Shown here piece after piece: positions 10,206 to 61,336 of a stretch of 64,000 bases of DNA; within the stretch, counting starts at the first letter, position 1; each line of letters begins with the position of its first letter. The notes under the pieces were generated by a model, which was given only the letters and a program-made list of their open reading frames with translations, had not been told where the DNA came from and searched no databases. The translations under genes were made by a program, and so were the position numbers. This DNA comes from Dimargaris cristalligena (Eukaryota), in contig ML002219.1 in assembly GCA_003614675.1 (NCBI GenBank), positions 1 through 64,000 on the forward strand. Reading direction: 5' to 3'.

Positions 10206-11721
10206 CTACAGTCGGGCAATTTCGGGCAGCTCCGACTCCTCCATAAACCGAAGCGGAGTAGCCGTCTCTCCGATCCGTTCCTCAACCTCCGACACATGAA
10301 CTCGCAGCGCCAGGGTAGGAGGCCCATCCGGTTTAGGTAAAATCAACAACATCCAGGGGTTGTAGAGAGTCAGGCTGCAAACTATATCAAACGGGACACC
10401 GGTACGGTCCACGGGTTCCGGTTCCTGGAAGCCCAGTCCGCGCAATGCGATAGTCAAGTTATACTGCGCGAGACAGGTCGATGTATTCAGTAAAGCCTCT
10501 GCCGACATTCTAGAACGCAATACCTCAATCAAGCCATACTCGGACCGATACAGTCCGAATTCCAACAGCGCCACCACCCCCACCTGGAGGATTAGAAGGG
10601 CTTCGTCCGAACCACCCGCCAAAGAGTGGAGAAATTCGGCCAATATACCATCCTCGCCCGCGGCGGCCAGCGTGCATACGGTAATATAGATTAATGTCTG
10701 GATGGCGTCTTTGGCGACCGAGGTAATATCAGGAGAGTTCCCCAGAATTCCGGCGAGTTCTTCGAATGACTTTCGAGTCGCCACTGGCACCATACTGGCA
10801 AATGGTTCAAGGCTGTCTTCGTCCAACAAACGGCCCAGCAAGCCAATCCACAGAACAATTAGCGAATCAGTTTCGCCGGTTTGGATCAAACGTAGGAAGG
10901 GAAAGAGTTCCTGCTGGTGACCCTCGGAAAGGGACGGCAGACTCAGGAATCGCCAATCGGCCAAAAGTTCGTTGCGGTGGTTCTGGTAGATGGAGTTGAG
11001 GAGGGGGCTTTCGGGTAGGCTGGAAAGAGGTATAGATGGGGAGGGACTATCGTCAATTTCATACGCCGATGGGGTCGATGGGAGTCGGGCAACTTCTATG
11101 GTTCGGTAGAGACTTTCCGTATAAGCCGAATGGAGCTCCACGGCCGAGAGCTGCAGGAATATCTGGATCCATACGCCATCGGATTCCGGCTGGGCCAATT
11201 GCCGGTTCATCAAGGATTCGATTTTCCATTTGGGCTAGTGGGTTAGGCACCCGTCAGAATAGAATGCCACCAAATGGAGGTAGAACATTAGATGGTTGGC
11301 CATTTATCCGTACGATTATATCCATATTATAATTTTTGGAAAACAACCAACAGTTATTCGAACCCGGATTATCCAAAGCTACCTTCCCCCTTCCCAATCA
11401 CCGAAACGAGGAGGTAAGTTTCATTGTTTTTTTAAAGTAACTAATTTTTAAACTTACATCATTTGGTCGCCCTTCCAAAACGTATTCGGAAACCCCGTTC
11501 AAACCTCGCGATACGCCCGATAGACGCCGTACTTCATCATACGGGAGGTGTGAAAATACCATGGCGTGAAGTTCTAGAGGCAGCTTCATATACTTAGAGT
11601 TAGAACGCCGGGTAAGCCCGCGCTTACGTAGGGAATATGTTGGGCGAGCGAGCGCCATATCTCTAATGAGGCTCGCCCATATCAGAAATAAAGGCAGGTA
11701 CGAAATCATTCGACCAAGCAT
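10206..11721 (-). CDS. Secreted F-box-like protein; exons 11721-11458 and 11234-10206 (~430 aa)
   Basis: Hydrophobic N terminus (SYLPLFLIWASLI...ALA|RP), KR/RR dibasic sites, F-box-like LPLELHAMVFSHLPYDEVRRLSGVSR; phase-0 intron with GTAAGT donor, CTAAC branch and CTAG acceptor. Confidence 0.75.
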
Positions 11722-13590
11722 AGTATACGGATATCCAAATACGAGAGAGTGTATGTGAATGAGGTTGAATGAGAAGTAGGCAAAGGCGAGAGACGAAATG
11801 GCTAATTACGAATACGGCTATTTTCCGATACTAATGTGGAGGTGGGCTATGTAAAGAAGCAGGGCATGCACTACTATAAGTATTATTTTTATATAAATAA
11901 ATGGCAAGTGCAGCTCAATGTCTTATAGTCTCGTAAATAGAGAACCACGTTTGAATAGACTATCAACAAGAGTGAGAAGAGGACTGCCAGCGAGCATAGT
12001 CGCGGCCACTACATATTGTACCCAATGGCCGAAAATTCCAAAACAGGACAGGCCATTTTTCAATAGAAAATGAAAAAGATGTGTCGGAGTGAGGAACCAA
12101 CCAGGGCCATCTGTTTCAGCAACCCCCTTCACCTGCCAGGAACCCTTGGCGGTAACACCACGAGGTCGGTCCAACATCAATCCACGCGGATTTCAAACTG
12201 AAGGGTGCCGGATCGGCACATCCCTTTAAATCCCCCTTTTTCACAGCTGTCCCAAAAGCGAGCTAGTGTGGGACAATAGGGGACACACGGACACATGCAG
12301 TCGAATTAGAAAGCGCTGCGATCGATAAGTTTTACAATGTTCTTTTTTTTTATATGGCCGAATTCTCTGCCACCTCGGGCTTTTCCATAAGGCTTCCAAT
12401 GACCTGAAACATGCCATCCCTGTATTGTTACAACGTACTGAAAGGGAAGAGGCCCCATTATACTACTGGCCCATCACTGGTATTTCCCCTGGCGAATAAG
12501 CTATTATTAAGCAAGATGCTTACACATTTATTTCATTGCTGGCCGTTGTTGTTACAGGCCCAGCCAAAAGGGGGGGGGGCAACCGTTGACTGGGGTTATG
12601 GCGTCATGGTCAAAGTAATCGACAAGGAGGTATCCTTGGGTGTGACGAGACGAATGGCTTCCCTGTTCCCCCTAGTTGGCTGTATTTCCGGGGGATTTAA
12701 ATCCACGGATTTTGGCCATCTCAGGAAGGGTGATGTTCTCGGTCTAGTTTATACTACCGAAAAACCCCTACTCATAATTCGGCAATTATCGCCTCTAATG
12801 AACACCCATCCACGGATGATACCGATTCTATTTTTCATACCCTAAAAATGGGATAGTGCATCTAAGTTATAATGTTCAACTAGTAATATCTATTATTTGG
12901 GTTTTCTACTAGAATCCCAGCTGCCCTTCCAATCCCCAACGACCCGGCATCTGAGTCAACCACCCCGTTGAAACCTGCGCCAACCCAGCACAGTAGTATA
13001 TTTTTATCTCCGCATCAGATATACCGGCATCGACCATATAGAGTAGCTACTGCCCGAAGCACCCCTTGCTTGGAATATTATAATCAGCTAGAGTACGTTG
13101 GAGCTCAAATACTCCCGATTAATCAAAGCCAAACTTGGCATTTGGCTATGCCGCATGGGCTGCCAGCTCTCAATGAAATACATGTCCAAAGCAGGACGGG
13201 TATTAATTTGGTCCAAGGTAGTGTAACAATGCATTTTCCAACGGGTCCAGCAATTACACCATGGTCAGACTAATAAATCCATACCACTGGTCTAGAGAGA
13301 AGATAGGAATGTGTACTTTTGGGTGGGGAAGTTCAAAATGAAATCAGCCAAAGGGAAGATTTGTCATGGCCTAGTTAGAGTAATTGGTTTTATCACCTGT
13401 GATATGAAAACCATTAGTTGCTATTCCAATTCATATAAGAAACCTCAATAAATGCCTAAGCCAACCTCTTTTTCACTAGCCCTATTTTAACAGTATCTTA
13501 TTACTATAATATATCTATCAATCTTTGATGGCATGTTTAAACAGAAAAATAAATATAATAATAAGTTCCAGTGGACCAGTAAGTTTAATA

Positions 13591-14180
13591 GTGTATTACC
13601 TGGGTTAACTACTCTTAGTCTGGCAAGAGTCCCAAGGATAGGTTTTTAATGGTAGGTGGGGCTTAAACTTAGCCAAGCAGGCTACTAGTATCAGGTATGG
13701 GGCACCATACTAACTAATAAAGGCTAAGTAGTAGGTATATATAAGGGACATGTAGTCAGTATACTTACTAGTTAATATGGGGGAGTGAGAATATATAGAG
13801 TTTATTGGGGTAAACTACATGGTAGGAAATAAGCTAAGGAGACTAACCGGTCCCAATGGGGCTAAGTTATATATATATATGGGGGTATCTCCAGAGGGAG
13901 GTCCCAAGGGAAGAATACTACTAAGATAAAGGTATAGGTAAATAGACTAACCAGATGGCTGCTAGTATCTAGAAGACTCTGATGGTAACTGGAGGAGTCT
14001 TTGGATCAGCACTTAAGTAATTAGTGTGAAGGGGCAGAGTCCAGAAGGGGGAGGGTTATATAATAAGTGATAATCCCATAGTACTAGGGGTGGCTATGGG
14101 AAGGCCAATATGGTACTATATAGCCTAATAGGGTTGGATATCTATGCTGAATGGATCAAAGTGGATTAGATAGTCTGACA
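13591..14180 (-). mobile_element. Decayed ~600-bp LTR-like repeat, copy A
   Basis: Begins TGTCAGAC on the minus strand, internal TATATATAA; aligns with 15643-16459 (opposite orientation) and 61961-62544; only one CpG seen. Confidence 0.7.
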
Positions 14181-14676
14181 ACATCCCTAATGGTATAGTT
14201 TTAGGATAGTGTATTATAGATAGCTTGAGACTAGTACATAGGTATAGCTTATCAGATGGAGTGTGGCCTTATGTTGGTAAATTGAAAGCTGCTGCAGCAG
14301 GGTTAGCCTTAGTTAGTATCCTTGTATTGTTGTCCAGTGGCCCACTAGCCATGGGTTAGGTATACACCTGTAGTAGATTAGCTGGGGCTCTAGGTTTATA
14401 GGGTATCTAATTAGTACTAGACACCTCTAGTGATATAGTATTAATAGTGTTATAGCTTATTCTCACCCCCTTATACTAGTTAGTAGGTGCACATCCCTGC
14501 ATATTCCCTGAATATGTACTGCCTGGGGTATCTGGCCTATTGCTGTTAGCCTTCAGAATCTGTAAGGAGGTAGTGGCTTCCTTATCAGCATAGCCTAAAG
14601 TCACTGTAGATGGCTCCCTAGTAGCAGAAGATGGGAGGCTCATAGAGTTGGATGAGACAGAGGTGGAATTGGACAT
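14181..14676 (-). pseudogene. Decayed ORF (MSNSTSVSS...) with several stops, unknown origin
   Basis: ATG downstream of a TATTTAAATA box and pyrimidine-rich leader; frame broken by TAG/TAA; CpG-free; ends at LTR-like copy A. Confidence 0.3.
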
Positions 14677-15642
14677 AGTTATGGTGGAAAGATGTGGGAA
14701 GGCAGGGCAGTATTTAAATAAAGGGGGGATGGAGAGTATAAAATAAGGAGTATTAATAATTTATTAGAAAGATGATGGAGGTAATGAGTGTGAAAAAGAA
14801 TAGACCAAAGGAAATAGGTTGTAATAGGATTAAAAGAATATAATAAATCAGATGAGTAGGTAATGATAATGAATTTCAAAAAGAGTGACAATTTGCTGGT
14901 TACTTATGTAACCTTTAGGGGGGGCCTTGGAGGCTACTGGATTATAAAGAGGATGCAGAAAATAACCAACAAATAGAATTATATGAAATAAAAAAGAACC
15001 ACTAAGAAATAAGTTAGACTTTTAATGTACATTAGAAAAAAGGCAGACCTTTCAATCTAGACTGTAAGTATAAGAATAGTAAAAGTATTTTGGTATTAGT
15101 ATATGGTTATAGTATAGGTGGAAAAATCAATAGGTAAACAGTGGGAATGATATCACCATTGTATATCCTGGTATTTTCTACCCCTCACTGGCATGGACCA
15201 GCCATTCATAGACTGGGGGTAAGTGCTGACCACCAGATGGTACTACATATTCATTTACCATATTCTGCCCAAATATCTCATGTTTTTGACCATGGTACCT
15301 CCTGATCTTTGATACCTAGATACCATACTTCCTTTGCATCCCTTAGTTGCCATCAATAGCTGCATTCTATTGATGAGTCACACAGATGAGAATATATACA
15401 TTAAAAATGTTGTAATAAGCTATACCCTCTGTAGGTATTTTTAGCTAGTTGGGCTATGGATTAATTTGGATTCATTTCATGTAATGGATATGGCTGCACA
15501 TTTTTTCATTAAATTGGGTACTGATAAAACAAGGGAGTTAGCCCAGCTATTCATTAGGCCATAAAAAAATAGAGGGCCAGATAAAAAGAAGTTAGGTTAA
15601 GAATAGTAAGAAAGGTAGTGTGAAGGGTTCAGAGAAATTCCC

Positions 15643-16459
15643 TGTCAGACCATCTAATCCACCCGAATCCAGACACCTTAGTATCCATTACTATAAGGCC
15701 TTATAGCACCATATTAACCTTCCCATAGTCACCCCCAGTACTATGGGGTCATCCTATATCATATAACCTTTGTTAGAATACTAAGGATATAAAGAAAATA
15801 AAACTGGAAGTAAGGGAAGAAAGTAGCTAGAGGATAGTAGGTACCTTTAGGTGGTTAGTTTTATTGAACTGTAATTTTAATGGGGTGAAATATAAGTGGC
15901 TAATATAAATGATCTTATGATAGCAGAATAAACTAACATAATTAGGTAAAACAGGATAGGATAAAGAACATATAGGAACATATTCTTCAATAATATTTCC
16001 CCTTCTAGACTCCACTGCTTTGCACTACTCACTTGAGGGCTGATCCAACAACTCTTCCAGTTACCATCAGAGTCTTCCAGGCCCTAACAGCCATCCAGTT
16101 GGCCTATTTTACCCTATCTTAGTCTTAGTAGTATTTTTCCCTTAGGGCCTCCCTCTGGAATTACCCCCACATATATATAACTTGGCCCCATTAGGACTGG
16201 TTAGATTCCTTAGCCAATTCTTACCCCTTAGTTTACCCCTAATAAACTTTATAAATACTCATCCCCCTCATATTAACTAGTAAATATACACCACTACATA
16301 CCCCTTATATATATATTTCTACTAGCCTTTATTAGTTAGTATTATGCCCTTATACTTGACACTAGAGACCACTTAACTGAGCCTAAGCCCACCTACTATT
16401 AGAAATCTATTCTCAGGACTTTTTATGGACTAAGGGTGATTAACCTGGGTGATACTATA
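15643..16459 (+). mobile_element. Decayed LTR-like repeat, copy B, interrupted by a ~225-bp insertion
   Basis: TGTCAGACCATCTAATCCAC start; colinear with copies A and C except 15771-15995; differences mostly transitions. Confidence 0.7.
15771..15995. mobile_element. Nested insertion in LTR-like copy B, possibly a short solo LTR (TGTTA...TAATA, decayed TAACA)
   Basis: Segment absent from copies A and C; TG start and decayed CA end; target duplication not clearly resolved. Confidence 0.45.
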
Positions 16460-16980
16460 CTTTGTAAGTTTTTTTTTTGAGACTAACAACAGGACCCTGG
16501 CTCCTAGAATAGCTATAGAATAGTAAAGCTGGAAATGTCATCAAGTAGCTTTTCCTTTTTTTTTTTTGACAATAACTCCATGTAGCATCAACCCATTACT
16601 AGACATATCACTAATCACTTATTTAAATGTTTTTAGTAACATTTGCACTTAACCAAACTCCATTTCCACTTATACCTGCCACAATTGTGACACTCATTCA
16701 TAACATGGGTACTGGGTATTTTATATTTTGGGACTAAGCCCGAATTATTAGTAACTAAATAATAATACCTGTACACAAAGGTTTTAACCCAATTACTAGC
16801 ATACGTAAATGTGCCTATTTCAAGGATTTCATATATAATACTATCCGCCAAGGTCTTATTTAATGGCCGGCATGCGGGGTCTCCTCGATTCAAAAAAGTT
16901 GGAATCGGGACCCAATTAGTGGGTATCAGTGAATCCGCTATACTTACCCCCTTACCCCCTCTCCTCATCATTCAGTGCAA

Positions 16981-19314: not shown

Positions 19315-19381
19315 GAACAACACGGTCAGTTAGCAAGGTTGGGTGGGGTAGCCTAAAGAAGAGCGCTCAAAAACTGAGGGG

Positions 19382-19400
19382 GAGAGAGAGAGAGAGAGAG
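19382..19400. repeat. (GA)n microsatellite
   Basis: GAGAGAGAGAGAGAGAGAG upstream of TRM2. Confidence 0.9.
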
Positions 19401-30200: not shown

Positions 30201-30792
30201 ATTATATCTAATTAATGCACCTCTGTCCTGTATGTATTTATGAATTGGATTGTATCTCTGACCGTATATATCTCGTCTCGTCTCGTTCCGTCTCTGTTAC
30301 CCCCACTTATATCTTCTGTTACTTAGTATATCTCCGTTTGACTCTTATTAACCGCCGGTTACTATACCGTCTTCTGCTACTACTGTCAGCGGCTATTTAA
30401 TTGTTTCCTGCATTGTACATATTATCCCTTACGAGGTCTGCCCTATAGTGTGTTCTAGCAACTTTTCTTGACAGTCCACCCCCTGTCGCTGTGTATCCTC
30501 TAACTCCGCTTTTAAGGTCCGGCAAGCTACTTTATTAATTACTCTACATACACCGCCCCTCGACCCCCCCACCACTGCTTTCTACATTGGTGGATCTCCT
30601 TCGTTAGCCGCTGTTTACTCTACAGTCTGAGCTACACTGGCACCTACCTGCATTCCACTGCTGCCATTATATATATATATCTAGATATATCACTCCAGTA
30701 TATCTTCACAGATACGCCAGCTCTTATTATTCGGGCACACGACTGGCCATGCTAACTAGACGAGGCACCTGCGACTGACCTCCTACAGCGTC

Positions 30793-33700
30793 ATGAACCT
30801 CTTTGCCTCGTCTCTTGCCGCCACCTACGATACTTTTCTGCAGACCCTTTTCCTCATCCACCTTCTCGCTCTCCTATGGTCCATCGCTCGCATCCGGGTG
30901 GCGGGGGAAAGGGTCCGCCTGGACCCTTTGGTGATGGTGCAAACCCGCGACATGCGGACCGCCATCACCTACGCGGTCCTCATCAGTCAGATTCTCCTCT
31001 TCAGCGCCGCCTGCATTGCCTTTGCTTTCACTTACCTCATTCCCTATCCGAGCGACACTCCCTTTAGTTCCCGGCTGGCCGCGTCGGACATGCTGCTCCA
31101 GTCCGTATATACCGCCGACTTTAGCAGTGTGGGTATGTGGGTGAGCCTGCTGTTATACAATGTCGGCATGATTATTTTCCTATTGGCCATGTTTGTGTTT
31201 AGCAGCCAGTGGGTGTACATTATTAATTTTACCCTGGGCGAGGAGTTCCTGGTGCCCCATCGGGCGGGCTTCGTGCAGTACCTCGTAGGTCTCGTCTTCT
31301 GTTTCTTAAGTATCGTGTTAACCGCGTGGCTCTCGGTGCACCAGTCGTGGGCCATTGCGCGCTCGGTGACCCGCCTGATATTCGCTATCCAGTGCCTTAT
31401 TCTAACCTGCTATGGTATGTGGGCCATTCGGCACCTTCGACGCACCCTGCGCATACGGCGGATCCAAATCAACTCCTTAACCTCGGTGTCCGCTATTATC
31501 CGCATGCAGCAGCTCGAGTTTATGGTTGAATACGCCGTTTACTTTGTGGTGTTCCTGGGCATGTACGGCATCTGCTACCTCATGGTCGATATTGATACTC
31601 TATCCCGCGCATACAATATTGGCTCGTCGCAGTTCGCAGGGGCTGGACTGACGTTCCTGGGCTGGTTTTCCTCCGCCGCCATGTTCCCGGTCCTGATTCT
31701 GGTCCTGTTCCCCCGTCCCTACGTGACCCTGCTTATCATGCTGACGCTTCTGACCGACGATTCCGTCGGCATGGATCCTGCTGTCCACCTCCTCAACAAC
31801 CCAGAGGTATCCGTGTCCCACCTCAGCACTGTACTCGAAACGATTATCACGAACCGCGCCCGGAATCACCGGGAATCCATCGGGTTTTCCACGTTTATGC
31901 GCAACAGTACCATTATGCCCCTGGACGAAATGACTCGCAAACAAATGCTGAACGAGAGTCTGTCGCGTATCATCGATGGTGTGATCCCCATTGAAACCAT
32001 TCGTTCGATGCCTTCCGCCCCGAGCCGTTCCAACTCTTCCTTCTTTTTGGGCCAGCGCCTCCGGTTAAGTATCCGCTCGGGGGTTAGTCGGATATCGAAT
32101 GCGTCTGACTGGGGTCTGCGCAGCGTCGGTCAACTAAGTCCCCTGTACCCCACAAGCACCAGTACCCGGGTGTCCACCTCCACTAACCCGGGGGCTTCGT
32201 ATCCCCAAATACCACCCGTACCACCACTGCCCCTGATCCAACGGGCCCCCGGCTCCCTGAATAAAGGCGAGCCCGCCTCTCCATACGTCGTAACACTCTC
32301 CCGGTCCTTTGGCTCGCAGCTCCACCGACAGGCCGACCCCTTGGGGGGAACAGTGGGCTTCTCAAACCCTCTGCAAACCAGCACCCTGCCACCGATTGCC
32401 AATAGCTCACCCATCCTCATGAACCCCGATGAAATCGAAAAGGTCATCTCCGACTCGGCCACCGAGGCCATGCGGGACTTGTCCAAGCCCACCACTCGGC
32501 TGCGGTCCCTGTCCAATTTTATGTCTCCTTTAGCTCTTTCCCTGACCGAACTCAACGCCGAAATGAAACGGACTAACACCCAAAAGTCCAATGGCATCAA
32601 ACCGAACGGTGCCGCCCCGACGCCCAAAAAATCCCTCCGGGGCAAGACTCCACCCGTATCGGCCCCCCGGTCCCCCAGTTCGGCCAACACCAGTCAAATG
32701 GGCCCCTGGCCGTCCCGGTCCGCCTCGTCATCCTCGAACCTTTCCGTCTACTCCCGGGCCGGTCCGTCCGCCCAGATTTCGGCTAACGTACCCGCGCTTC
32801 CCCCGAACCCAGCCGTGGTGATGCCAGCTCCTGAACCCCTTTCGCACGGCGGCCGTCGTAAGAAAAACCCTAATATGGCTGTTTTCACCCACGGTCGAGC
32901 TGGGGATACGCCGGGTCCGCGGACCGCCGAGGGCCTCCTCCTCACCCCGACGACCCGGTCTTCTCCACTGGCCACCTCCCCGCCCATCAACGCATCTATG
33001 TTGAACCAGTCCAACTCGGTATCGATTGTGGTGCAGTCACCCCAACCTCCGCCCAAACCATCCATGGCTTCCATGATTACTGCCACTACTCCATCGTCCC
33101 TAGTTGTCAGTGTGGCTTCCCGGCCTAGTCTCGATCGCCTTCCCACTTCGACCGGCACCTCCCAGCGGTCCTCTATACTGCCTTCCCCAGCCTATGGGTC
33201 CACGGTGGCCTTTGATCGGATGGAGCTGCCTCCCCTCCCTTCCCCTGTCATGGTTACCTCGATTGTGCTTCCATCCCCCGTCGACCCAGTGGGGCCCGCG
33301 ACTCCCTGCGCAGAACAAATGGATCCTCCCCGCTCGCCTGCTCACCCCAGCCTGCCTCGTCTTTGCCTTAGCTCTGTCGGCTGTCCAGAAAATGGTGAAA
33401 CTTCCCCCCTAGTGTCCCCCTCCCCCGATGATATTGACGAGGCTCTCCACCCTCTCCTATCTCCTTTGGGAACGTTCTACCCCTTCCCTCTGGACCAGCT
33501 CAAACCGCCCTGCCCCACCTACTCCAGGGGCCGGACTCCCATTTTCAGCCAAACACTGTTACCCGAAATTCAGGACCACTTCACCAGTCCCAATCTACTA
33601 AGCGAGGACCGGGTGGTCAGGGCCGAATGCGACCGGGAAACCGAGTCCGACCTCGGCCTTTCCCCGCATGACGTTGTCTCAGCGGCGTTACCCCCGCAGG

Positions 33701-35862
33701 TGATTGACAGTATTATCCGCCCCGAAGTCACCCGACGACGGGGAACCTACTCGGGGCGCTCCCCCGTGTGGTCCCGGGAAACTTTGGTCACGTCCCCTTC
33801 GAAACCCCGGGCCTCCCGGGAGGAGGGGGAGGACTCCGATTTCGACCTGCAGGAGGAAACCGCGGCCGCCTTGTCTGCCTTTCCCCACCCCCCGGGCACC
33901 CGCGTCAACGCCCGGGCGCTCGAAAATCTGGGTCTGCGGATACCCGCCCCCTTGGTCACGACCCCCACTTTCCCTTTTAATGACTCGAGTAGCACCATCC
34001 ACGGGTCCCGGGACATGGGTCTTCGACTGAGTTCGTTGGAGTGTCTCCGTATTAGCTCAGTGGCGAATTTGCCCTACTATAGCCGGCCCCGGCCCAAATC
34101 GCAGTCCCTCAGCGAAGTGGTGGTGACCACTGGGCTTAATGGCGACCCGGTCGGTGGAGCTGATCTGGGTGCGGGTGTCCATATGGGTGGTATATTGCCC
34201 GTTCGCTCGTCCGTCCAGTCCCAGCTCCACTGGACTAACCCAATTAACCAGTCCCGCGGTTCCTATAGCCTCCGACCTATATCCATGTCCCGTTCCACTA
34301 CCGCGGTTAGTGACGTCAGCATGGGCACAAGTAGCCACGGTAGCACCAATAATGATGGCAGTGACAATGGGCACTCCCGCTACCTTTATCCCCGGTCCCT
34401 TCCTCCGCTGGATTCGACCTGGCTGAATCAGCTAGGCATTGCCCAGGCGATCTCCGGGGAGGCCTTCGATCCCGAACCACCTCGCCCAGTCCTGCGTACT
34501 TCAGTGTATGTCCGCGAGTCCCGGAAGCCCAGCTTTGCCCTGGATTCCCTTTCCAATATCCACTCGTTTTCCTCCTCGGACTACTCGTCGCCTTTCGGAG
34601 AACTCAATGGCGGAGGAGGAGGAGAGCGGGAGGCCGAAGGAGTGACCGGCGGTCTGCGGTCATCCGTGTCCTCCCTCGACCGGCAGCCGTCCCGCAAACG
34701 GCGGCTTAAATTCAAGGGGAATTTGGAACACAAGGTTTTACGCACGGTGGAACTGGCAGAGAATTTCGATTATCGCCTCAAATTCTCCACGGACCCGGCC
34801 CGCAAGCGACAGATTCAGGTCCTGCCACCGGCGGAACTTAACCCGGCCAATCCCATCCGTGCCCGGGCCTTTTCGACGGCCTATGTCTCACCCCCCTTAC
34901 CGATTCCAATGTCCACGACTTCGTCAGGGGGGAGTCAGATCGGCTCCCCCCGCAGTCACGAACGCCCCCAGTCCTTGGTGTCCCCGCCGCCCCGGTCCAT
35001 GGGCTTCAGTATCAGTCGGCGACAGGGTTCCCGGCTTAATGTGGCCCTCTCGCTCGAAGAGCTGTTCAATACCAAAGCCGCCCGGCAACACCATCGCGAC
35101 GGCCAATCCCACCCCCTGCATTCACCGAACGAACTGAGCGACGACCCCGGGGCGGACCTGAACGTTTCCGGGCGGATTCATAGGGATCTGTTCGCATCGG
35201 ACTCTCTCGTGACCACCTCGTCGCAGTCCCTGTCGACATCGTTCACCCACTCCGACTCCCAAATCTCCCCCATACCGTCTATACGCTCCTCCCTGTCCAG
35301 CTGCTCGCTCCTGGGCCGCCACACGTCCTTTGGTAAAATCATTCGCACCATTAACCCCGGTCCCGGTGCCAGTGCTGATGATGCCGATGTGGAAGCGGAT
35401 ATTGCAGCGCCGCACCACCCATGTACATTGAACTACCTCCAGGACGTTGGCTACAGTTTCGCCGAGTCCCACAAATCGATCCAATCGGTCCTTAATGTAT
35501 CACGCCACTCGTCATCGGCGGCCTCCCGCGAACGGTCATCATCGTCCCTGTTCTTTCACCCCCTCCTGCCGTTTATTCCCCAACGGCTGTCCCAGCCCGA
35601 TCCGGCGTTTCCGCCCCGCTTCCACGGGCGGTCTCCCTCGGCGAACGCCCTGTTGGCCATGACCATGGCCATGCCCCCACCCGGTAGTCATACAAACGTT
35701 GAAGGAGGCGGACCGGCGGACTTGAAATACGGTCGGCCCAAGACTATGTTCAACCCTTCGACCCGTCGGAGCCGTCTCGCCCAGTCCACCCGTATGTCCC
35801 AACCTTATTCACCCGACTCCCATTCGACCCAACCCCAATACAGCCGTAAATCCCAACATTAG
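30793..35862 (+). CDS. Intronless 1689-aa protein: N-terminal 7-TM (GPCR-like) domain plus very long Ser/Pro-rich tail
   Basis: Seven hydrophobic segments in aa ~14-310 ending FPVLILVLFPRP; remainder low-complexity S/P/R-rich; 5-kb uninterrupted ORF. Confidence 0.85.
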   Translation: MNLFASSLAATYDTFLQTLFLIHLLALLWSIARIRVAGERVRLDPLVMVQTRDMRTAITYAVLISQILLFSAACIAFAFTYLIPYPSDTPFSSRLAASDMLLQSVYTADFSSVGMWVSLLLYNVGMIIFLLAMFVFSSQWVYIINFTLGEEFLVPHRAGFVQYLVGLVFCFLSIVLTAWLSVHQSWAIARSVTRLIFAIQCLILTCYGMWAIRHLRRTLRIRRIQINSLTSVSAIIRMQQLEFMVEYAVYFVVFLGMYGICYLMVDIDTLSRAYNIGSSQFAGAGLTFLGWFSSAAMFPVLILVLFPRPYVTLLIMLTLLTDDSVGMDPAVHLLNNPEVSVSHLSTVLETIITNRARNHRESIGFSTFMRNSTIMPLDEMTRKQMLNESLSRIIDGVIPIETIRSMPSAPSRSNSSFFLGQRLRLSIRSGVSRISNASDWGLRSVGQLSPLYPTSTSTRVSTSTNPGASYPQIPPVPPLPLIQRAPGSLNKGEPASPYVVTLSRSFGSQLHRQADPLGGTVGFSNPLQTSTLPPIANSSPILMNPDEIEKVISDSATEAMRDLSKPTTRLRSLSNFMSPLALSLTELNAEMKRTNTQKSNGIKPNGAAPTPKKSLRGKTPPVSAPRSPSSANTSQMGPWPSRSASSSSNLSVYSRAGPSAQISANVPALPPNPAVVMPAPEPLSHGGRRKKNPNMAVFTHGRAGDTPGPRTAEGLLLTPTTRSSPLATSPPINASMLNQSNSVSIVVQSPQPPPKPSMASMITATTPSSLVVSVASRPSLDRLPTSTGTSQRSSILPSPAYGSTVAFDRMELPPLPSPVMVTSIVLPSPVDPVGPATPCAEQMDPPRSPAHPSLPRLCLSSVGCPENGETSPLVSPSPDDIDEALHPLLSPLGTFYPFPLDQLKPPCPTYSRGRTPIFSQTLLPEIQDHFTSPNLLSEDRVVRAECDRETESDLGLSPHDVVSAALPPQVIDSIIRPEVTRRRGTYSGRSPVWSRETLVTSPSKPRASREEGEDSDFDLQEETAAALSAFPHPPGTRVNARALENLGLRIPAPLVTTPTFPFNDSSSTIHGSRDMGLRLSSLECLRISSVANLPYYSRPRPKSQSLSEVVVTTGLNGDPVGGADLGAGVHMGGILPVRSSVQSQLHWTNPINQSRGSYSLRPISMSRSTTAVSDVSMGTSSHGSTNNDGSDNGHSRYLYPRSLPPLDSTWLNQLGIAQAISGEAFDPEPPRPVLRTSVYVRESRKPSFALDSLSNIHSFSSSDYSSPFGELNGGGGGEREAEGVTGGLRSSVSSLDRQPSRKRRLKFKGNLEHKVLRTVELAENFDYRLKFSTDPARKRQIQVLPPAELNPANPIRARAFSTAYVSPPLPIPMSTTSSGGSQIGSPRSHERPQSLVSPPPRSMGFSISRRQGSRLNVALSLEELFNTKAARQHHRDGQSHPLHSPNELSDDPGADLNVSGRIHRDLFASDSLVTTSSQSLSTSFTHSDSQISPIPSIRSSLSSCSLLGRHTSFGKIIRTINPGPGASADDADVEADIAAPHHPCTLNYLQDVGYSFAESHKSIQSVLNVSRHSSSAASRERSSSSLFFHPLLPFIPQRLSQPDPAFPPRFHGRSPSANALLAMTMAMPPPGSHTNVEGGGPADLKYGRPKTMFNPSTRRSRLAQSTRMSQPYSPDSHSTQPQYSRKSQH

Positions 35863-37416: not shown

Positions 37417-38881
37417 TCACAGTCCATTATTCTCGGTCAGGGTATTTTGATCAAGCACTAAAGCATCTTCACCTTCGGGGATGAGCTCCAGGAAGGCCGC
37501 TTTGCGTACACGAAGTGCAATAAATTTTTGACCATTGCTGGTCTTTTTCACCATGACATTCTGCTTAAATCCATATTCATCATTGCAGCTATAAGTAGTC
37601 TGAGTAGGTCGCAAATCCATGCCAGGGAACATATCCTTGATTGAATTAACCGCCGTGCTATAGCCGAAAAAAGTGGCACAGTTCAGAGTCTGACGGGTGT
37701 CTCTGATAAGGCGCGCTGCTACATCAAGGAGCGTTTTCTTGTTGTCATTATGAAGGTCGGAGGGCATAAGCTCTAGCATCAGAAGGGCCAAGCCACTCTT
37801 GATTTCTTGGCCGAGTACATTGTTCTTAGTAAAGGTCTCGAAACGGGTGACGTATTCATTGGCAAGACCGGTATTTCCATCCATGACCAAGTGCGCGATT
37901 AAGGCAGGAATAAGTTGATAACCGAATACATAATTGGAAACTACAAGACCTCCCGGATTTTTATCTTCATAGAACGCCTGTTCGATTATTCGACGAGAGG
38001 TTTTTGAAAATCCGTGGAATACATAATTATACAAAGGGATTAATTTTCTATTTAACTTCGTGATATCTTGAACCCTGTCCGATGTAAGGAGATGGTGCAG
38101 AAGGGGGAAGGCCTTTGATTTTTGGGCATCATCCAGGCGACTGGTGTTGACCGTTGCCCACGAGCCAGAAATAGCCGATTGGAACCACTGGGTGGTATCG
38201 ATTAAATCCCTGTGCGAGACTTGCTCTTTGTCATCCTCTTGTCTGTCGTCGTCCTCCAAGCGTATTTCTTCGAGCATTATGCCAAATCTCCCATTGGCTA
38301 GAATGAACATCGCTGTATCGTATTCTAAAGGCACAAGGGCCTTGGACAGGCGGGCCTTTTGATTTTTAAATTCAAGTATACTAAGCCCTAGGATTTTCGC
38401 AACCTTGAATCACCAGCGTTTAAATCAGAAACATGCCGGTTATAGATATATTGCTGTTAGCTGTCAATTCGCTTGATACTTGGATATAATGAGTTAAAAA
38501 AACTACAATACCAAAGCCAAGTAAACACCTAATAGGATATTCCCGACTGGTGCTACCAAACTTCGGAAAGCGGGGTCAGGGTTAAATAAAAGAGTCGTGT
38601 GGGGAGCGCAATCAAGGGCTCTAAATACAGCAAAAGGTGGTTCAAAAACTTACTGTCGAGACAGTAGGATTGGAGTTGTGGGGGGTATAGGGGTTGACCT
38701 CAGGTTCCGACACACTCGGAAAATCTTTAAAAGCATCGTAAAATACGTCATTTTCAGGTCCTTCAACGTCGTCGCCATGTACTATATTATTGGCGTTTGA
38801 TAAGGTCGGATAGGGCTTCCCCTTCACATACACGGCTACAATGAGGCCCACGAGGGATATCGTGGAAGCGGAGAGTCTCAT
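37417..38881 (-). CDS. Secreted protein, paralogue of the secreted F-box-like family; exon 1 38881-38654, last exon ~38403-37417, middle structure uncertain
   Basis: Signal peptide MRLSASTISLVGLIVAVYVKG|KP; GTAAGT donor; C-terminal domain GNTGLANE...LLMLEL...CATFFGYSTA...C resembles 60395-61336. Confidence 0.6.
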
Positions 38882-53158: not shown

Positions 53159-53967
53159 TAAAGGAGGTGGGCAAATTCGTTGCTGGGTGTGAATCAGCGC
53201 TGGGCTCACAGAAAGAACTGGTTAACTAGTGGGGAAACAAGGCAGTATAATAGTACGTTTGGAAGGGAAGGAATAGAATATAAATCCCAAGTAATGGACT
53301 GAGAAGGTACCGTATAGGACTAATAGATAGCGCGAGTGGCAAGGAGATAAAGAACGATATAAGCCTGGAACAGCCTAGAAACAGGAGACCATATAAAGAG
53401 TCCACCAATGAGGGAATACGCCTTCCTGAATCAGATCGCTCGCACGGCCAAAAGGGGTCGTGGCTTGCTTTGTAAGAGAACTCGTATCGCGGCTATATGC
53501 GGCAGAGCGACCCGCTCAGTTTCCCCCAAACCCAGCCGCCGACCCGCATTTTCGCAAGCGGGCCAGCCAGCGGTTGAAAGCCCCAGTCACCTTGCTTGGT
53601 CTCACCGATTCCTCTGAGCGTGTGTACAGTGGAGTGAAGAAAGTGGCTGCGGTCGTCGAAATGGTCCAATTATTAGGCAAATCACCTGATGACGTTGGTC
53701 TGATAACGGGCGAGAAAGGGGTTTTCGGGTGATACCCACTTCCACCTTATAGTCCCCCAGTCCCTTTATAAGATGCTTCTCAATGGCGAGTTGGCCAATG
53801 TAATCGCAGCACCCTCAGCTTTCTGAAACCGACGTATATACTAGAGTCGACACAGCTTGGGCAATATCATATAGTTTGTCCACTCCTTGGGACGAGTAAG
53901 GCGACTGGGGCTGGTGACGAACAAGGCCGGCTAAACTAATGGTTGGGCAGAATGATCTAATCCCAAA

Positions 53968-54111
53968 ATATGGGAGTAGTTCAACCAGGCTGTATAACGA
54001 AAAATCCATTAGATGGGGCCAGCATTACTGGTTAAAATGGCTACTCCCACATACTCTCCCATACACAAATCATGTAAAACTTTATACAGCTGGCTTGAAT
54101 TTCACCCATAT
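53968..54111 (+). mobile_element. MITE copy 6
   Basis: ATAT|GGGAGTAGTTCAACCAGGCTGTATAA...TTATACAGCTGGCTTGAATTTCACCC|ATAT. Confidence 0.85.
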
Positions 54112-54729
54112 ACTCATTGAAATACACCGTTTAGCTTATTAAGGCGCGTAAGTTTACGATTACCAGGCACTGGAAATCCAACACTACTACTTTCGAGATA
54201 TTAGGCACCATTCGCATAATATGACCAGATTGACGTAACCCGTTGGGGGGCCAGTGCAGTGAAGCAAAAGACCCGCAATATATATCGCGACTGCCATTCA
54301 AAAACTTATTATCGATCGCATTGTACAATACCATATCGGAGCTAAGGGATAAAGCCCCGTATAATTCGCGCCAGACGGTCGATAGAAGCTAATCTCGTGT
54401 TTTGAGATGCGTAATATACCTATTCCCTATAACTCAACATGGACCTCCCCACGCGTCCTATACTGACCCAGTTGTCTATGGATATAAGTTGTATTGCCCG
54501 ATTCCAAATGGCATCACAAGTGCTCTTCATTTTGGTAGAAGAAAATATTTCACCAATGAACACCGCGATCGGCGGAATGTTCCTCCCATTTCAGACCGAT
54601 CTCTGCTATTGCCGGTTAGTTTAAACCAAACTACCACTGGCGGTATACTGAAAGATGATCAAAATCCAGTCAGGGTTTTCCTTTCGTTTTTCATGTATTT
54701 GTCCATATTTAGACACCAATTACCTATTA

Positions 54730-54745
54730 CTCTCCCTCTCTCTCC

Positions 54746-54784
<39 letters not shown>
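54730..54784. repeat. Compound (CT)n(AT)n microsatellite
   Basis: Direct reading. Confidence 0.9.
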
Positions 54785-56524
54785 CCGCGCAATGCTACTT
54801 GACACGTACTGAAGCATACCTTACTGGTCTCCAGCGGGATCAAATAATAAGTTATGTGGCATGATCGATTAATTGTGGGCAGCTAACCCCATCATCTGAA
54901 ACACCGTTACTCTAGGGGTTCACCCATACCGATTATCCTCTTTGCCTAACCATTCTAATGGCTCTCGCCGAAACCAAAACCGGTAGTCTAAGCAAGACAG
55001 GTAAAAATCAATACATATCACTGTACCCTATACCCATTAGATACTCCCGCCCAGTTTTCTATATCCCGACCCCTCATCTCCAAACGGCTCCAGTAACGTA
55101 CTACAGCCCCCACAGGGCTTTGATTTGCCTACCACGTCCAGTTTTTGCCGCAATATTAATTATGGTGTCAGCCCAGTCCTACTAATATATCCCTCTGGAG
55201 CCATAGGCATAGGCTAGGGGTGTTCACGCGGCTCGACTACTGTGCCAATCCCTTTGCTGCCATTACAATACTAATAAACTAAGGGTAGTCGCTCAGGTGG
55301 ATCACATCTACTCAAGGGCACCCCTCCCGTGTTTCTAAACCCCGACGGGGTCAATAAAACTATTATTCCCCAAAGCCGATTCTATAGGCAGCCGCAAAGT
55401 TAATCGTGACCTGCTCACCACTCCCCTTCATAGATGGCCCGGACTTGGCACTTTTAGTTACCAATGCCTATTTTTAAAGTCCGTAGCCTCACTCATTCAA
55501 CCCATTAGGGATGCCAGTCTAATCCACCTCCGATGAGGGCGATTGAGTGCCAATCCTTTGAGTGTCCAATAATTGACCTTGGATAATTGCCACTGCCTTT
55601 CCATTAGGCTCTCCCTCACCCCTGTTCCTTTGGTAAGAGAGCAACAGGGCCTTCCGTCTCCCCTCAGCTAATGATCCACAGGGCATGTCACATTAAGCGT
55701 CCTATTAGATCATCCAATAATGGGAATGGGAGAGCGGTAGATCTCTCAACCTTAGAGAGTCCACAATCTTAGAGAAATAGGCGCCTCCATTTTATTAGCA
55801 TGCAAAAAATAGACGAGGGTCACGATGTACCGGCTCTCTCGGATTGAGATCAGCCGACCATCGTTGGTTCAAATTAGGTCCGATCGACACGTCATTAGCA
55901 ATTGGTTCGTTGGGCTAAAGTCCACTCTAACCCTAACCCTACAGCACTCCTCGACACGGAGAATATAGGCGATTGCACTGCCCCTTCCTCTAAATGGATG
56001 CTTCCGTGACCAATTGAGCGATTCCCTCCCCCCTCCACATCTCACACCGCCCCTGTCATTGCCTGTTCTCTTTTCTATTGACCGGTATACCCCAAATACT
56101 TAAAAGAGGTCAAATACGCCCGCCCCATTACGAAGTTCTGTTCGACATTCTTTCTTTTGCTTAACGCCATTCATACATGCAAATGTATATTATTTATTGT
56201 TTATCCAATCACGCACTATCCATTTATTTTTTTAATGTACATTTATCGTCCATTTTAGATACTTTACGGCCATTACTTATCTTAAACGACAACCTAGCGT
56301 GTTTAATAATAGATAACTCGCATATTCCCAGTTTCCTCGGCCTGAGTCATTCGGAATCCCCTTCTCTAATATAGACCCCCAGAACTGCACCCGACAAGCC
56401 GTATTAATCGCTTGCATTTTACTTCAGGGAAATACCGGTATTCTAGTTGCATTTCCCACATTAGCCCCCACCAGCAGCCTATTAAAAATATTGTGTGCGG
56501 CTGGGTCTGCTCTTCCATAGCACA

Positions 56525-57727
56525 ATGGCTTCTAACCCCACAATTTCCTCTTCGGCGCTGAACGTCGCCTCCGGGATTTCCATCGTATCTAGTATGGCCA
56601 CCATCGCCATGGTCTCCTCTATTCTCTATCGTTTTCCCGTGGCCCGGAGTTCGCCATCGTTTGCTCTATTAGCCTGGCTGGCCCTCGCCGAAGTGGCGCA
56701 ACGACTAGCCGAATTCTTCCAGGAACCCTCCCTATGGAGCGACACAACGCTACCTAATGTGCGGGCCATACTGTGGTTTTCCGCCTTCTGGCACTACATT
56801 TACCTTGCCGTCAACACCGTTTGGGTGTTGCATATGGACCTGACGGTGGTGCGGGGCTTGTCGCGGCGTATCCCCATTCGCCAATACTACGGTTGGTTGG
56901 CGTTGGCCATTGGATTCGTGCTCTCCTTGGCCCACTTGGCGCCCGACGACATTGCGTTTCCCAAATCCCACCTCATCACTATTCAGCTGGCAACCCAGAG
57001 TATGTATCAGTTTCTCTTCGCCTGGGACACCATTTGGCTGCACCTTAGTATGGGCTATACCCTGGTCATCTTAGGGTTTACCGTTCGCCGACTATCCCTC
57101 GGGCCACTACCTCGCAACCCGACCAACCTACTGGCCAACACCCCCCGCCTCACCTACGTGCAGTGTGTCGCCATTCGACGGTCCCTCCTGTGGCCCCTAC
57201 TCTACCTTATCACCGTTCTCCCCTACGCCATTCTGGGTTGGTGCCAAATGTTCCAGCCGGGTCCGGACACCGAAAGCTGGGTCTCAGTGGTTCGTATCAC
57301 TATGTCCATCAAGGGCTGGTTCCTTTTTATCGCGGCCGTCTACCACCCAGTGATGACTCCCGTTATCGGCGAGGTGCTGAAAAATGCGACCCACCGGTCG
57401 CGCTGGCTGTCCCTGTGCTGGCTTTTGGGCCTGGTGATCAATCCCCACCGCGCCCCGTGCCCCAACCCAACTTCCGAAAAGGTCCGGGATTCGACCTCTA
57501 GCAGCTTGGAATCACCTTACATTGACGACCTCGACATGGGTCCCCGCATTACGGGATTCTTTAGTAGTTCGCTGGAGCCGGTTAGGCCAGCAGCACACTT
57601 GGGTCGCCTTTCCGCTGTGGCTCCGAAGCGAACCAAAACGGTCATGATTAACCTTCCCTCCATCCTGGTACATCCTCACTCCAAAGACCAGGGCGACAGT
57701 GTGGTTTACGAGTATACCTTCCTTTAA
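56525..57727 (+). CDS. GPCR-like 7-TM protein (cAMP-receptor-like/Git3-like), intronless, ~400 aa
   Basis: TM1 SGISIVSSMATIAMV, SPSFALLAWLALAE, RRSLLWPLLYLIT, SIKGWFLFIAAVYHP; seven hydrophobic segments. Confidence 0.75.
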   Translation: MASNPTISSSALNVASGISIVSSMATIAMVSSILYRFPVARSSPSFALLAWLALAEVAQRLAEFFQEPSLWSDTTLPNVRAILWFSAFWHYIYLAVNTVWVLHMDLTVVRGLSRRIPIRQYYGWLALAIGFVLSLAHLAPDDIAFPKSHLITIQLATQSMYQFLFAWDTIWLHLSMGYTLVILGFTVRRLSLGPLPRNPTNLLANTPRLTYVQCVAIRRSLLWPLLYLITVLPYAILGWCQMFQPGPDTESWVSVVRITMSIKGWFLFIAAVYHPVMTPVIGEVLKNATHRSRWLSLCWLLGLVINPHRAPCPNPTSEKVRDSTSSSLESPYIDDLDMGPRITGFFSSSLEPVRPAAHLGRLSAVAPKRTKTVMINLPSILVHPHSKDQGDSVVYEYTFL

Positions 57728-59886
57728 TACCACTTCCCCACCTTGGCGCCATTTTTATTTTATTTTTATTTTTTGCCCACCCGTGAAACAGTATGTTTAT
57801 TTAACCTCAAAACGTATGGTATCAGGTGCGCTCTAAATCCCATATCTATATATACCCAGTCTCTGTAGGCTATTTTTTAAAATACACACACAATTAAATT
57901 AATATGATATGCCAAATTACAAGAAATCTCGAATAATATCAGTTTGAGTGGGCCCAATGGTCGCATATGGAGAGTACTTCCCCCACAAAGGGTGACATAT
58001 TGCCAGTCCTGACCTCAAGCCGCACCCTATACTTGAGGGTGCGACCATTTACGTGGATAATAACTCGACACCAACTAATTCTATTATTCGATTAATTATT
58101 ACCCACTATAAGCCGGGCACTAGTAAGTAGCAAGGCCCTTTTTATGCAAGAAGCCAGAGAGGTAGAATTGCAGTGAGGTTCCAGGCGACTTGGATGTACT
58201 CAGTCAAATACGCTCCCGCCTATGTATAAAAGCACCTAAATGATAGTCGAACGGCGGGAACTCAACACGACCCCATATAGTGAGACAGCGGCAACTTAGT
58301 AGTCAGAGATTGCCCAGTTGCTATACCGCCACGGCTTACGTCGCTCTTTTAGTTTTACAGCCCTTATTATCACCCTCTCTGCATGTACGTCTTATTCACT
58401 GAATATATTATCAATGGACAAAGGGTGTTCAGGGTCCAAGCTAGATATTAAGCGATTAAACGATTCTTTTGCCGGCCTCTAGGGGAATGCATTGGTGTAC
58501 CATTATCGAATTCCATGTACACCCTAACCCCCTTGATAATTAACTTACACCTTCAAATAAAACAATAGAGGTATACCTATCACTGTAATACCATAGTTTT
58601 ACGCGAAGAGCACAATAATTTCTTTTTTTTTTCAAATCAATGAATTATTGACGCAAGACTAAACTATATCGCCCTACCAACAGGCAAATGTTCCAGTATT
58701 TTTACATCAATGTATAGTCTAGGGCTGTTGGGGGTGGGACATTATAGGGGGCGACTAATAATACACCACAGTATGTGTTGGGCTATTGCTAACGTCCATG
58801 GATGAGCTTCCCACAGCAGGAAAGGGTTCGGTTGAACCAAAAGATCAAGGGTGGAAGAAAAGACGAGGAATGAGATAAAGGGATAATCAAAGCCTATTCA
58901 CAGAATTGGGTGAAAAATACAAAAGACCAATGTAGGAGCGCTAAAAAGGTCACGGCTGTTACTCGGCTAATTACAAAGCAGTATGAGCCGTACTCTATAT
59001 TCACAGAATAGGATCTGCGGCGTGATTCCAGCAAATGGAAGCCGTTTACTGGAGAATAGGGTGCGTGTAATAGCAGCCAGGCGGGGAAAGCTTTACCCGC
59101 ATGCCGGCCGGGAGTCGGAGCTTGATTCGGGCTACCAATGTTCAAAGTCATTGGACATGAGGCCTGTGCTCCAAGGGTAGTTGACCTCCAGCCGGTCTCG
59201 TATCTACGGGACCAATTTACGGAGGACTGCTATAATTGCTATTGATAATGCATGAAGCTGGAGTCCGGCAGATATTTTCACCGGCGTGGAGCTGTTACCA
59301 TCCATTTTTTTAGGAAAAGTCACCACGACAGTGTCAATTATACCTATTATAGCTAAAGGTCTATTTTATGCGGCAGTATTTTTTAATTATAAAGAGCCAC
59401 TTAAATACAAATCGGCTTACTTCTATAGAAAGCCCTCCCTCAACTCTCGTATTTGCATTGGCTTTGACCCTAGTTACCCGACCAGAGATTTACCCCCCGT
59501 TAATTAAGCGGGCCAATCGCTGTCGGGAATGGGCATTCTGTGATAAAAGACCAAGTCATCGGTAGTAAAATTGGCTTGGCCATTGCATAAACTATAATGG
59601 GCCGAAACCAGTTTTTAGTGGCGTAATCCATTTTGAATACATACCCCCGCCACTTTTACGGGGGTATGGCCAGTTTTCCCAAAAATACCATTTTAAACCA
59701 TACCGTTGAACCCCCGATATAAATATCCGACCTTTCGTCTCCAGCTAAATAATATCCAATTGCCAATTGACCTAATTCTTGCCTCGCTTTACTGCTTTCA
59801 CCCTAACCAACACTTAGCCGCCTACCCAGCACCCACCTTCGCTTTACAACATTCGTTGTTGTTATTTTTTTGTAAAAATTCTAGTG

Positions 59887-61336
59887 ATGCAGTTTTCTCT
59901 TACCTTATTTAGCCTTGCTATTGTAGCTTTGGGGTTGCCCTCGTCCTCAATGGTGGGGGGAGTACCCGTGACTACTTCCATTGGAACCCTGCCTTTCGAA
60001 GTCGTTGAGGTTGTATTAGATTCTTTGGACCGCCCGGACCTCGCCAACTTCGGCCTGACAAGCCAAAGTAACCACCGAACTGTCGACTACTACCAGCAGT
60101 TTCCGACGGAAGTAAGTAAATTAATACCCATCTGATGATATGTTGTTGTATTTCTTTTTTGCTTCACCAATTTGACGTGCAATGAATTGTCACAATGACA
60201 TTATTTTAGCGCAGTACCGAACGCTTAAATTGTAGGCGGTGGGGCGATTGTAAGGAAACCGGATTCTGTGACTGTTCCAACATGTAATGACAAATCCTCC
60301 ACTTTATAACCACCCCCACCGCCTACACAAATCCCTTGACAATCGTACAAACCACTAAATTGACTGGTTAAAAATAATATTTTATCCCATATAGGAATAC
60401 AATAAACTATTGGGCATTATTAAGCAATATGACCAGGCCAAGAAACTCAATACCGATATGAAGGCATATCTATTTGAGCTAATTCAGCCAGCAGTTCGTA
60501 CAGTCATGGTCCAAACCTGGATCACTTCTGTCCTAGTCAGAAATCAAATCGATGCCAAGGGAAATCCCACGAACCCCAACAGTGTACTTGGTCCATCCAG
60601 GGATTTCGCGAAAGTCCAGGTAATTGTCAAAAAATATACCGATTTACTAGATGAACTGGGCAACTCGACGATACTGACCACGGTTGACCCCCAATTGGCC
60701 CGCAAACAGACCGACTACATCTCCGAACTGTACGCCATGTTCCTTCGACTCAGCAGTCTTTATTCCCACAACCCAGCCGTCTTATTCCAGGCCCTTAAGT
60801 CCGTCGACTTTACCGCCTATTTAAAAGTAAAGGCCAAGTCCGTACTGAATACCAATGAACTGGCGTATATCGAGGCGACCAAGATTAGATATGTGAAAAT
60901 AGATACAACCTCCCCATTGGCCGTATTTGAGCTGGGAGCCCTATTTACGGTACTGATGTTGGCCCGCGGCAACCTGTCACAGGCTAATGAAATATCCACC
61001 AAAGTAAATTGGGAGGCCAAGGAGAAGCACACTCTGGCGGCCCTGAGCTTCCTGTATCTCGGCGAATCGGGTCGTGAGGAAGATTTGCGAAAACTGGTGG
61101 AGAATGAGGCGTACCTACCGTACGCCAAGATATCCCTAATACGCTGTTTTAGCTTGAGTGGATACGCACAAGCTAGTCGGTTTCTCGAAAAAGTTCTGCC
61201 GCCGCTTCCCACCGATCATGCGAATTGCCCTGATCTCCGGTTCCAAATATTCGAAATTCTCAAGTCTGTGGGATCCACCACTGGGGAACTGAAAAACAAG
61301 GTGGATATTTTGTACAAAGAGGTTCTTATGCACTGA
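59887..61336 (+). CDS. Secreted F-box-like protein; exons 59887-60111 and 60395-61336 (~388 aa)
   Basis: Signal peptide MQFSLTLFSLAIVALG..., F-box-like LPFEVVEVVLDSLDRPDLANFGLTSQ; phase-0 GTAAGT...ATAG intron in frame; TATAAA at ~59718. Confidence 0.75.

Follow-up and report, generated by a model that had tools for sequence, protein, structure and literature searches.

In following up an initial annotation of a 64,000-nucleotide stretch of DNA from the fungus Dimargaris cristalligena (contig ML002219.1; hereafter the window), we found that three two-exon genes within it, here named A, B and C, are predicted to belong to a family of secreted proteins that often carry an F-box. As far as its sequences reveal, the family is real, large and undescribed, and it apparently represents F-box mimicry by a fungus against other fungi, with an unrecognised domain. 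The initial annotation had suspected a mycoparasitic owner, and rightly so: D. cristalligena is haustorial, and Dimargaritales parasitise other fungi by means of an appressorium and a biotrophic haustorium (PMC9866270). Our preferred interpretation, which we hold to be probable without being assured, is that the family consists of effectors that recruit host SCF (Skp1-cullin-F-box) ubiquitin ligases, with a variable helical domain picking the substrates. As the F-box works only in the cytosol, yet the proteins look secreted, the secreted F-box proteins are probably delivered into the host mould.

All three genes lie where they had been placed. Gene A (11721-10206, minus strand) consists of 88 codons, a 223-bp phase-0 intron and 342 codons. 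Its first exon (11458..11721) encodes a signal-peptide-like segment, a short basic linker with KR/RR pairs and an F-box. The predicted signal peptide (residues 1-25, 11647..11721; heuristic and alignment) has a proline at +2 past the predicted cut, and the F-box core (residues 46-75, 11497..11586) was located by the genome scan. The predicted intron (11235..11457, GTAAGT...CTAG) has the same junction as the annotated NCBI protein H4R33_006065 of D. cristalligena (P0001), which is identical over exon 2 (10206..11234). The P0001 model begins at a Met inside the F-box and thereby loses the signal peptide, and the family models P0010, P0011, P0015 and P0043 are shortened in much the same way. Such truncated starts go some way towards accounting for the family having been overlooked earlier. 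Gene B (59887-61336, plus strand) has exons of 75 and 313 codons on either side of a 283-bp phase-0 intron; in exon 1 (59887..60111) the F-box (core at residues 35-67, 59989..60087) directly follows the signal-peptide-like segment, the predicted intron (60112..60394) is at the family position, and exon 2 (60395..61336) encodes a 313-amino-acid orphan domain with a borderline match to the C-terminal half of the family domain and with no paralogue. A 40-bp mini-exon bounded by AG...GTAAGG in this intron (60210-60249, plus strand) was not adopted, as its inclusion would shift the frame. Gene C (38881-37417, minus strand) has a first exon of 76 codons (38654..38881) with a signal-peptide-like segment, an acidic linker and no F-box, a phase-0 donor at 38653, and a second exon of about 312 codons (37417..38355); the acceptor of its predicted phase-0 intron (38356..38653) was taken from the annotated form of the gene, P0006 (388 amino acids), and is uncertain. 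The GTAAGT phase-0 donors of A and B lie 39 and 38 codons past the conserved F-box Glu, and their second exons are free of stops over the full 342 and 313 codons. The phase-0 intron that had been described just past the F-box of A and B, and the phase-0 first donor of C, are thus as described.

F-boxes act with Skp1 in the cytosol and nucleus, and not in the lumen of the secretory pathway. Exon 1 reaches 24.1 bits in gene A and 21.7 bits in gene B on the Pfam F-box profile PF00646, for which the cut-off is 20.5, so that the F-box signature holds for these two genes. It does not extend to gene C, which has no Pfam F-box match and scores 4.3 bits on a family F-box profile. This family profile finds F-boxes of solved structure, namely those of Dia2 (E 4e-6), Fbxw8 (1e-5), Fbw7 (3e-5), AnkB (9e-5) and Skp2 (8e-4). 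A full-length model of the paralogue P0002 (predicted local distance difference test, pLDDT, 79.0) begins with a signal helix, which a disordered linker connects to a three-helix F-box; beyond this comes the secondary-structure pattern of the gene A domain. The F-box helices span residues 75-84, 87-94 and 98-106 at pLDDT 80-86, the three-helix fold being modelled for this paralogue. The P0002 F-box superposes on the Skp1-bound F-box of AnkB (5k35_A; Z 4.4, root-mean-square deviation 3.4, 50 residues), the score being weak and the domain small.

The N-termini were judged with a hydrophobicity heuristic devised for this analysis and used in place of SignalP. By this measure A, B and C each have a short hydrophobic segment at the start, with small residues at the cut site, in agreement with the signal peptides proposed for all three. 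Scanning the genome with PF00646 returned at least 62 places at E up to 1, and 34 of the 62 pass the heuristic. After L056 and L074 were dropped for a doubtful passing Met, 32 of 62 were kept, compared with 59 of 422 control Met starts in the window; this control is inexactly matched, the best upstream Met having been picked for the F-box matches, which tells against taking the contrast at face value. Thus, 32 of the 62 genomic F-box matches share a predicted layout of signal segment and F-box. The N-region has a charge of at least +1 in 26 of 31 copies, the flank after the hydrophobic core has a net charge of zero or below in 24, and only 4 of the 31 reach a 19-residue hydropathy of 2.0, which is transmembrane-like. 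A proline just past the predicted cut is nearly invariant in the 31-copy alignment. Judged from general knowledge of such segments, the pattern of charge and hydropathy speaks more for a cleaved signal than for a membrane anchor. The N-terminus of gene A is atypical in that a basic LRKR...RR stretch follows the hydrophobic segment, which, we presume, might serve as a Kex2 site or act as a nuclear signal.

The intron position is likewise shared. When a 28-codon window of each exon was searched for splice donors, the best donor in any phase was a phase-0 donor in all 31 signal-plus-F-box exons (alignment A1). It lies 36-40 codons past the conserved Glu in 28 of the 31, gene B conforming at 38, and many second exons start right at an in-frame TAG acceptor. 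For a check that does not depend on the presence of an F-box, we turned to 25 loci that had been picked up solely through the C-terminal domain (20 regions chosen from its genomic matches and 5 further loci). A family-type signal exon lies upstream in 23 of these, accompanied by an F-box of more than 10 bits in 12 cases, by one that looks degenerate by eye in 3, and by none in 8.

When the 32 F-box exons are pooled with the C-terminal-domain matches, to which some searches contributed all rows and others rows at E up to 0.001, the total comes to no fewer than 95 loci, spread over 89 contigs, so the portrayal of the family as expanded, dispersed and divergent was well founded. The window yielded no fourth family member. 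The neighbours between 6613 and 53221 are housekeeping genes, encoding COG3, YbeY, a TRM2-like methyltransferase, RalGAP beta, a G-protein beta subunit and the Lon protease, and because the neighbours are ordinary in this way, the family genes appear to have been inserted singly and not in clusters. A stop-containing match occurs in 31 of the 95 loci, and such copies fit a birth-and-death pattern; a point on the other side is that in-match stops may be extra introns and not breaks. From these comparisons, the ancestral gene is reconstructed as a signal peptide, disordered linker, F-box, phase-0 intron and helical domain of 300-400 amino acids, and this one two-exon gene is deduced to have multiplied to at least 95 dispersed and strongly diverged loci, many of them apparently broken. 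Some loci have the same exon layout with second exons that fall into separate clusters or are singletons (L011, L019, L025, L059, L062; L017, L020, L069; L052, L056, L057, L058, L065). These second exons match the main domain profile weakly or not at all, and the L025 clade alone comprises 12 loci; either strong divergence of the copies or a swap of domains may lie behind this.

Searching 1.84 billion representatives with a profile yielded 67 relatives. The 31 of these 67 that were looked up by name are all from Dimargaritales: 27 from D. cristalligena, 3 from Tieghemiomyces parasiticus and 1 from D. xerosporica. The exhaustive profile search was needed, as word-indexed protein searches with gene A exon 2 or alignment A3 returned the identical protein only, and the UniRef label of some members is just 'F-box domain-containing protein'. 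Among the relatives named, then, the family is by its sequences specific to Dimargaritales and most expanded in D. cristalligena. In a tree of 43 rows, which leaves out gene B and in which the deep branches are long and unsure, gene C falls in a clade of five supported at 100/99 that includes one F-box-bearing copy. Because this clade is nested among F-box-bearing clades, gene C has probably lost its F-box. In the same tree a D. cristalligena copy is joined by two Tieghemiomyces proteins, again at 100/99, and the family is therefore older than the divergence of the two fungi.

The C-terminal domains are not significantly similar by pairwise BLASTP (E 9.0 for A and B, 0.026 for C and B, 0.55 for A and C). 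A leave-out profile from 21 other paralogues gives 30.3 bits for gene A, 102.4 bits for gene C and less than 5 bits for gene B, the best of 1,008 shuffled or reversed decoys reaching 3.5 bits. With a wider profile, made from 63 database proteins from which A and C were left out, A scores 64.2 bits, C 88.1 and B 2.3, and the second exon of gene C has 9 further genomic matches. The score of gene B was reached by 4 of 300 of its own shuffles and the 4.7 bits of its C-terminal half by 1 of 300, and hhalign returns 4%. Through the family profiles, A and C are thus seen to share one C-terminal domain, and the C-terminal similarity that had been proposed for all three genes stands for this pair. For gene B, the link is borderline and not significant; the motifs quoted for it are present and in the right place, and its membership is proposed from the layout of exon 1 and the intron position. 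The conserved columns comprise W-x-Y-x-x-Y, Q-x4-F-P, L-E-F, C-A-x2-L-G-F-x2-A and A-x-R-V, in a domain whose mean column identity is 23% (alignment A3).

The initial annotation's description of this domain as uncharacterised is borne out. None of the second exons of A, B and C reaches any Pfam cut-off, and an LRR (leucine-rich repeat) match in Pfam was found neither in these exons nor in the 67 relatives. An AlphaFold2 model of the 342-amino-acid gene A domain (pLDDT 81.4, predicted template-modelling score 0.82) is composed of helices, one early strand and a late hairpin, the strands making up a small three-strand sheet. No solved fold was matched: the best Foldseek hit of this model has an E of 0.41 in the PDB and 0.43 among viral structures, the best VIA-align Z is 6.6, to generic helical repeats, and for the full-length P0002 model the best values are E 0.34 and Z 5.7. 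A sequence profile of the domain had 0 matches in the PDB. In the ESM Atlas, gene B exon 2 drew weak bacterial rows only, like TPR (tetratricopeptide repeat) or DUF5717. Blank fold searches are no proof of novelty, so we say only that the modelled domain may be a new substrate-binding fold.

Some members carry another cytosolic signature. FFAT motifs (a pair of phenylalanine residues within an acidic stretch), such as EFFDASE of Opi1p, bind the cytosolic MSP domain of VAP, which is anchored in the endoplasmic reticulum (ER) (PMC7705450). The linker of gene C holds an acidic tract and the core VFYDAFK (residues 37-52, 38726..38773, minus strand), at the same position as near-canonical motifs of its clade. 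Relatives have the cores EFFDASD, EFFDAPN, IWYDARS, IFYDAPE, IFYDAAE and TFYDALE, at residues 36-46 where the start is intact. In a scoring adapted from Table EV4 of PMC7705450 (supplement 6), gene C receives a marginal 3.0, and its clade relatives with EFFDASD and EFFDAPN receive 0 and 2. Scores of 1.5 or better occur in 3 of 55 exon-1 peptides, compared with a mean of 0.08 and a maximum of 2 in shuffles. Two points temper this result: once the threshold is loosened to 3, so that gene C is included, the count rises to 7 of 55 against a shuffle mean of 1.89 and maximum of 7, and the copies that bear the motif are related and so not independent. We regard the FFAT-like motif as a lead, a minority feature that could be a second cytosol-only signal behind a signal peptide, and it would point in the same direction as the F-box. 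More tentatively, and with somewhat less than even confidence, we envisage a modular family in which interchangeable cytosolic hooks, the F-box for host Skp1 and the FFAT-like motif for VAP/Scs2 of the host ER, are joined to a signal peptide and to one conserved helical fold that is new; this would make it the first known intracellular effector family of a fungus-on-fungus parasite.

In the mechanism that we propose, the family proteins would enter the secretory pathway, be released at the haustorium, and reach the cytosol of the host mould. Once there, the F-box would dock on the Skp1 of the host, leaving the variable helical domain to pick host proteins, which the host SCF ligase would ubiquitinate, leading to their degradation. 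Members of the gene C type, which lack an F-box, would bind targets without degrading them, and the FFAT-like motif of some members could serve as a tether to the host ER via VAP/Scs2.

Several observations weigh against this mechanism, and most of them would favour a different account, in which the proteins are secreted, the helical domain works outside cells or at the haustorial interface, and the F-box, derived from a cytosolic ancestor, is either decaying as a relic or serving as a structural cap. The F-box is under looser constraint than the remainder of the protein, with a pooled dN/dS (ratio of nonsynonymous to synonymous substitution rates) of 0.57 compared with 0.38 for the C-terminal domain and 0.38 for the signal segment, and it exceeds 1 in 2 of the 7 paralogue pairs from which these rough, near-saturation estimates were pooled. 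Many family F-boxes are below the Pfam cut-off. The F-box has, to judge by the alignments and the tree, been lost repeatedly, including within the clade of gene C, and because 8 of the 23 signal-bearing loci lack one, it is apparently dispensable in part of the family. Moreover, a Cys of the helical domain is conserved in 23 of 25 rows and would also suit an extracellular protein. In addition, no common host-entry motif is visible in the linker of the 31-copy alignment. However, the Glu of the LPxE motif is invariant and the Pro nearly so (together 90-100% conserved) in the 31 copies, a set chosen for having an F-box; F-box-like segments persist in the relatives from Tieghemiomyces and D. xerosporica; and the P0002 model retains a folded F-box that can be superposed on one bound to Skp1. 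We consider a relic or cap unlikely, though it is the likeliest of the alternatives.

It is improbable, in our estimation, that the proteins are delivered as decoys that jam the host SCF ligase via Skp1 and recruit no substrates, with the helical domain serving mainly for uptake or stability. The core of the C-terminal domain is kept where the F-box is lost, as would be expected of a shared carrier, and the helical domain matches no known substrate-binding repeat in Pfam or in the fold searches. Nevertheless, dozens of C-terminal domains as strongly diverged as these would exceed the need of a decoy and would fit many targets. Least credible, with very little probability in our view, is that the proteins are SCF adaptors of the parasite itself, either cytosolic through a downstream start or membrane-anchored, the F-box being on the cytosolic side: in the NCBI annotation, gene A begins inside the F-box, an in-frame Met past residue 18 and ahead of the F-box could yield a cytosolic form in 13 of 31 exon-1 peptides (A and B included), gene A has its basic stretch after the hydrophobic segment, and the genome has two Skp1-like genes, but 18 of 31 have no such Met, the signal segment is short, under purifying selection and kept in members without an F-box, and the charge of the flank (zero or below in 24 of 31) is unlike that of a reverse anchor.

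As regards the reading that we prefer, recruitment of the host SCF ligase, the alignment of the other fungi shows very little variation in the half of Skp1 that binds the F-box, so the Skp1 of the host should be a compatible partner. Of the two Skp1-like genes of D. cristalligena (L077 at G000:C77 and L078 at G000:C314), the first encodes the C77 protein, which together with its relatives in Dispira and D. xerosporica deviates in a segment that hardly varies among the other aligned fungi (66-69% identity to best matches), and the C314 copy carries a long insertion. The control of a living fungal host by haustorial mycoparasites is essentially unstudied, and dozens of secreted F-box proteins amount to a concrete claim of action inside host cells via the ubiquitin system, which can be tested in budding yeast because Skp1 is highly conserved in fungi. 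If the claim is true, the haustoria of Dimargaritales deliver proteins to the host cytoplasm and reprogram its proteolysis as plant biotrophs do, and yeast would offer a testable handle on the fungal defence proteins that get degraded. The substrates would then point to the defences of fungi against another fungus.

The window has other features that lie apart from the family. A fourth F-box gene, at 43300-41902 (minus strand), has no signal peptide; its F-box-like segment scores 19 bits on the family profile and is in a different frame from a weak LRR region, so that the gene is either frameshifted or has a short intron. Similar N-termini are found at C19, C569 and C133 of the genome (G000), which suggests a second, presumably cytosolic, F-box/LRR-like family. 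The gene at 3440-1105 (minus strand) encodes IucA/IucC (E 3e-28) and FhuF-like (1e-14) domains, as in siderophore synthetases of the type independent of nonribosomal peptide synthetase (NRPS). Two frames for membrane proteins have no Pfam match, one of 413 codons with multiple helices (56486-57727, plus strand) and one of 1,700 codons whose N-terminal helices are hydrophobic and whose long tail is rich in Ser and Pro (30760-35862, plus strand).

With regard to the literature, the two genome papers on Dimargaris deal with proteases, chitinases and NRPS (PMC9866270, PMC6784888), and the term 'F-box' is absent from their main texts. One supplementary file of PMC9866270 has no match either, and other supplements could list domain counts. 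In the portions of PMC5954228 consulted, only a cytoplasmic F-box protein is mentioned. A description of the family, or of any 'secreted F-box', was not found in the literature searched, a collection outside which most subscription papers lie.

Among known proteins, ordinary cytosolic fungal F-box proteins and FBXO47 resemble the family in having an F-box followed by a helical domain, and differ in that they are not known to carry a signal peptide. Clusters labelled ARM_FBXO47 appear in the ESM Atlas at 0.85-0.86, below the threshold for a lead of 0.9, and an identity with FBXO47/ARM was not backed by PF24467, which is matched by 0 of 67 family proteins (E up to 0.1). VirF of Agrobacterium is a single gene whose product is delivered by a bacterial type IV system. 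Legionella AnkB, whose Skp1-bound F-box (PDB 5k35) is matched by both the F-box profile and the model, is likewise a bacterial protein with type IV delivery, has ankyrin repeats, and is encoded by a single gene and not a large family. No sequence homology was seen to RipG, NemLGF2 or SSGP-71, and with no LRR, ankyrin or RING domain recognised in its sequences, the family is judged to belong to none of the three. The RipG (GALA) proteins of Ralstonia also turn an F-box and a substrate domain against the host SCF ligase (PMC4617103, PMC13243912); in contrast, they are bacterial and injected by a type III system, their substrate domain consists of LRRs, and they have no ER signal peptide. NemLGF2 of Nematocida displodere is a lineage-specific family that has undergone great expansion in an intracellular parasite related to fungi; it has an E3-type module and a proposed action on host ubiquitination, 152 members having a signal peptide or a membrane segment at the N-terminus and 113 a RING domain (PMC4928854). 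That RING domain is C-terminal, there is no F-box, and the host is an animal. Finally, SSGP-71 of the Hessian fly, like the family described here, is large and belongs to a eukaryotic parasite; its members have a variable domain after an N-terminal F-box, which some of them lack, and are proposed to hijack the host SCF ligase. Its F-boxes bind host Skp1, and its LRRs, like those of RipG, are thought to pick the targets (PMC7330099, PMC4617103). The two families differ in that SSGP-71 has LRRs, passes from insect saliva into wheat and has been shown to bind Skp1, whereas in Dimargaris the fold is helical and not of the LRR type, both owner and host are fungi, and the binding of Skp1 is a prediction.

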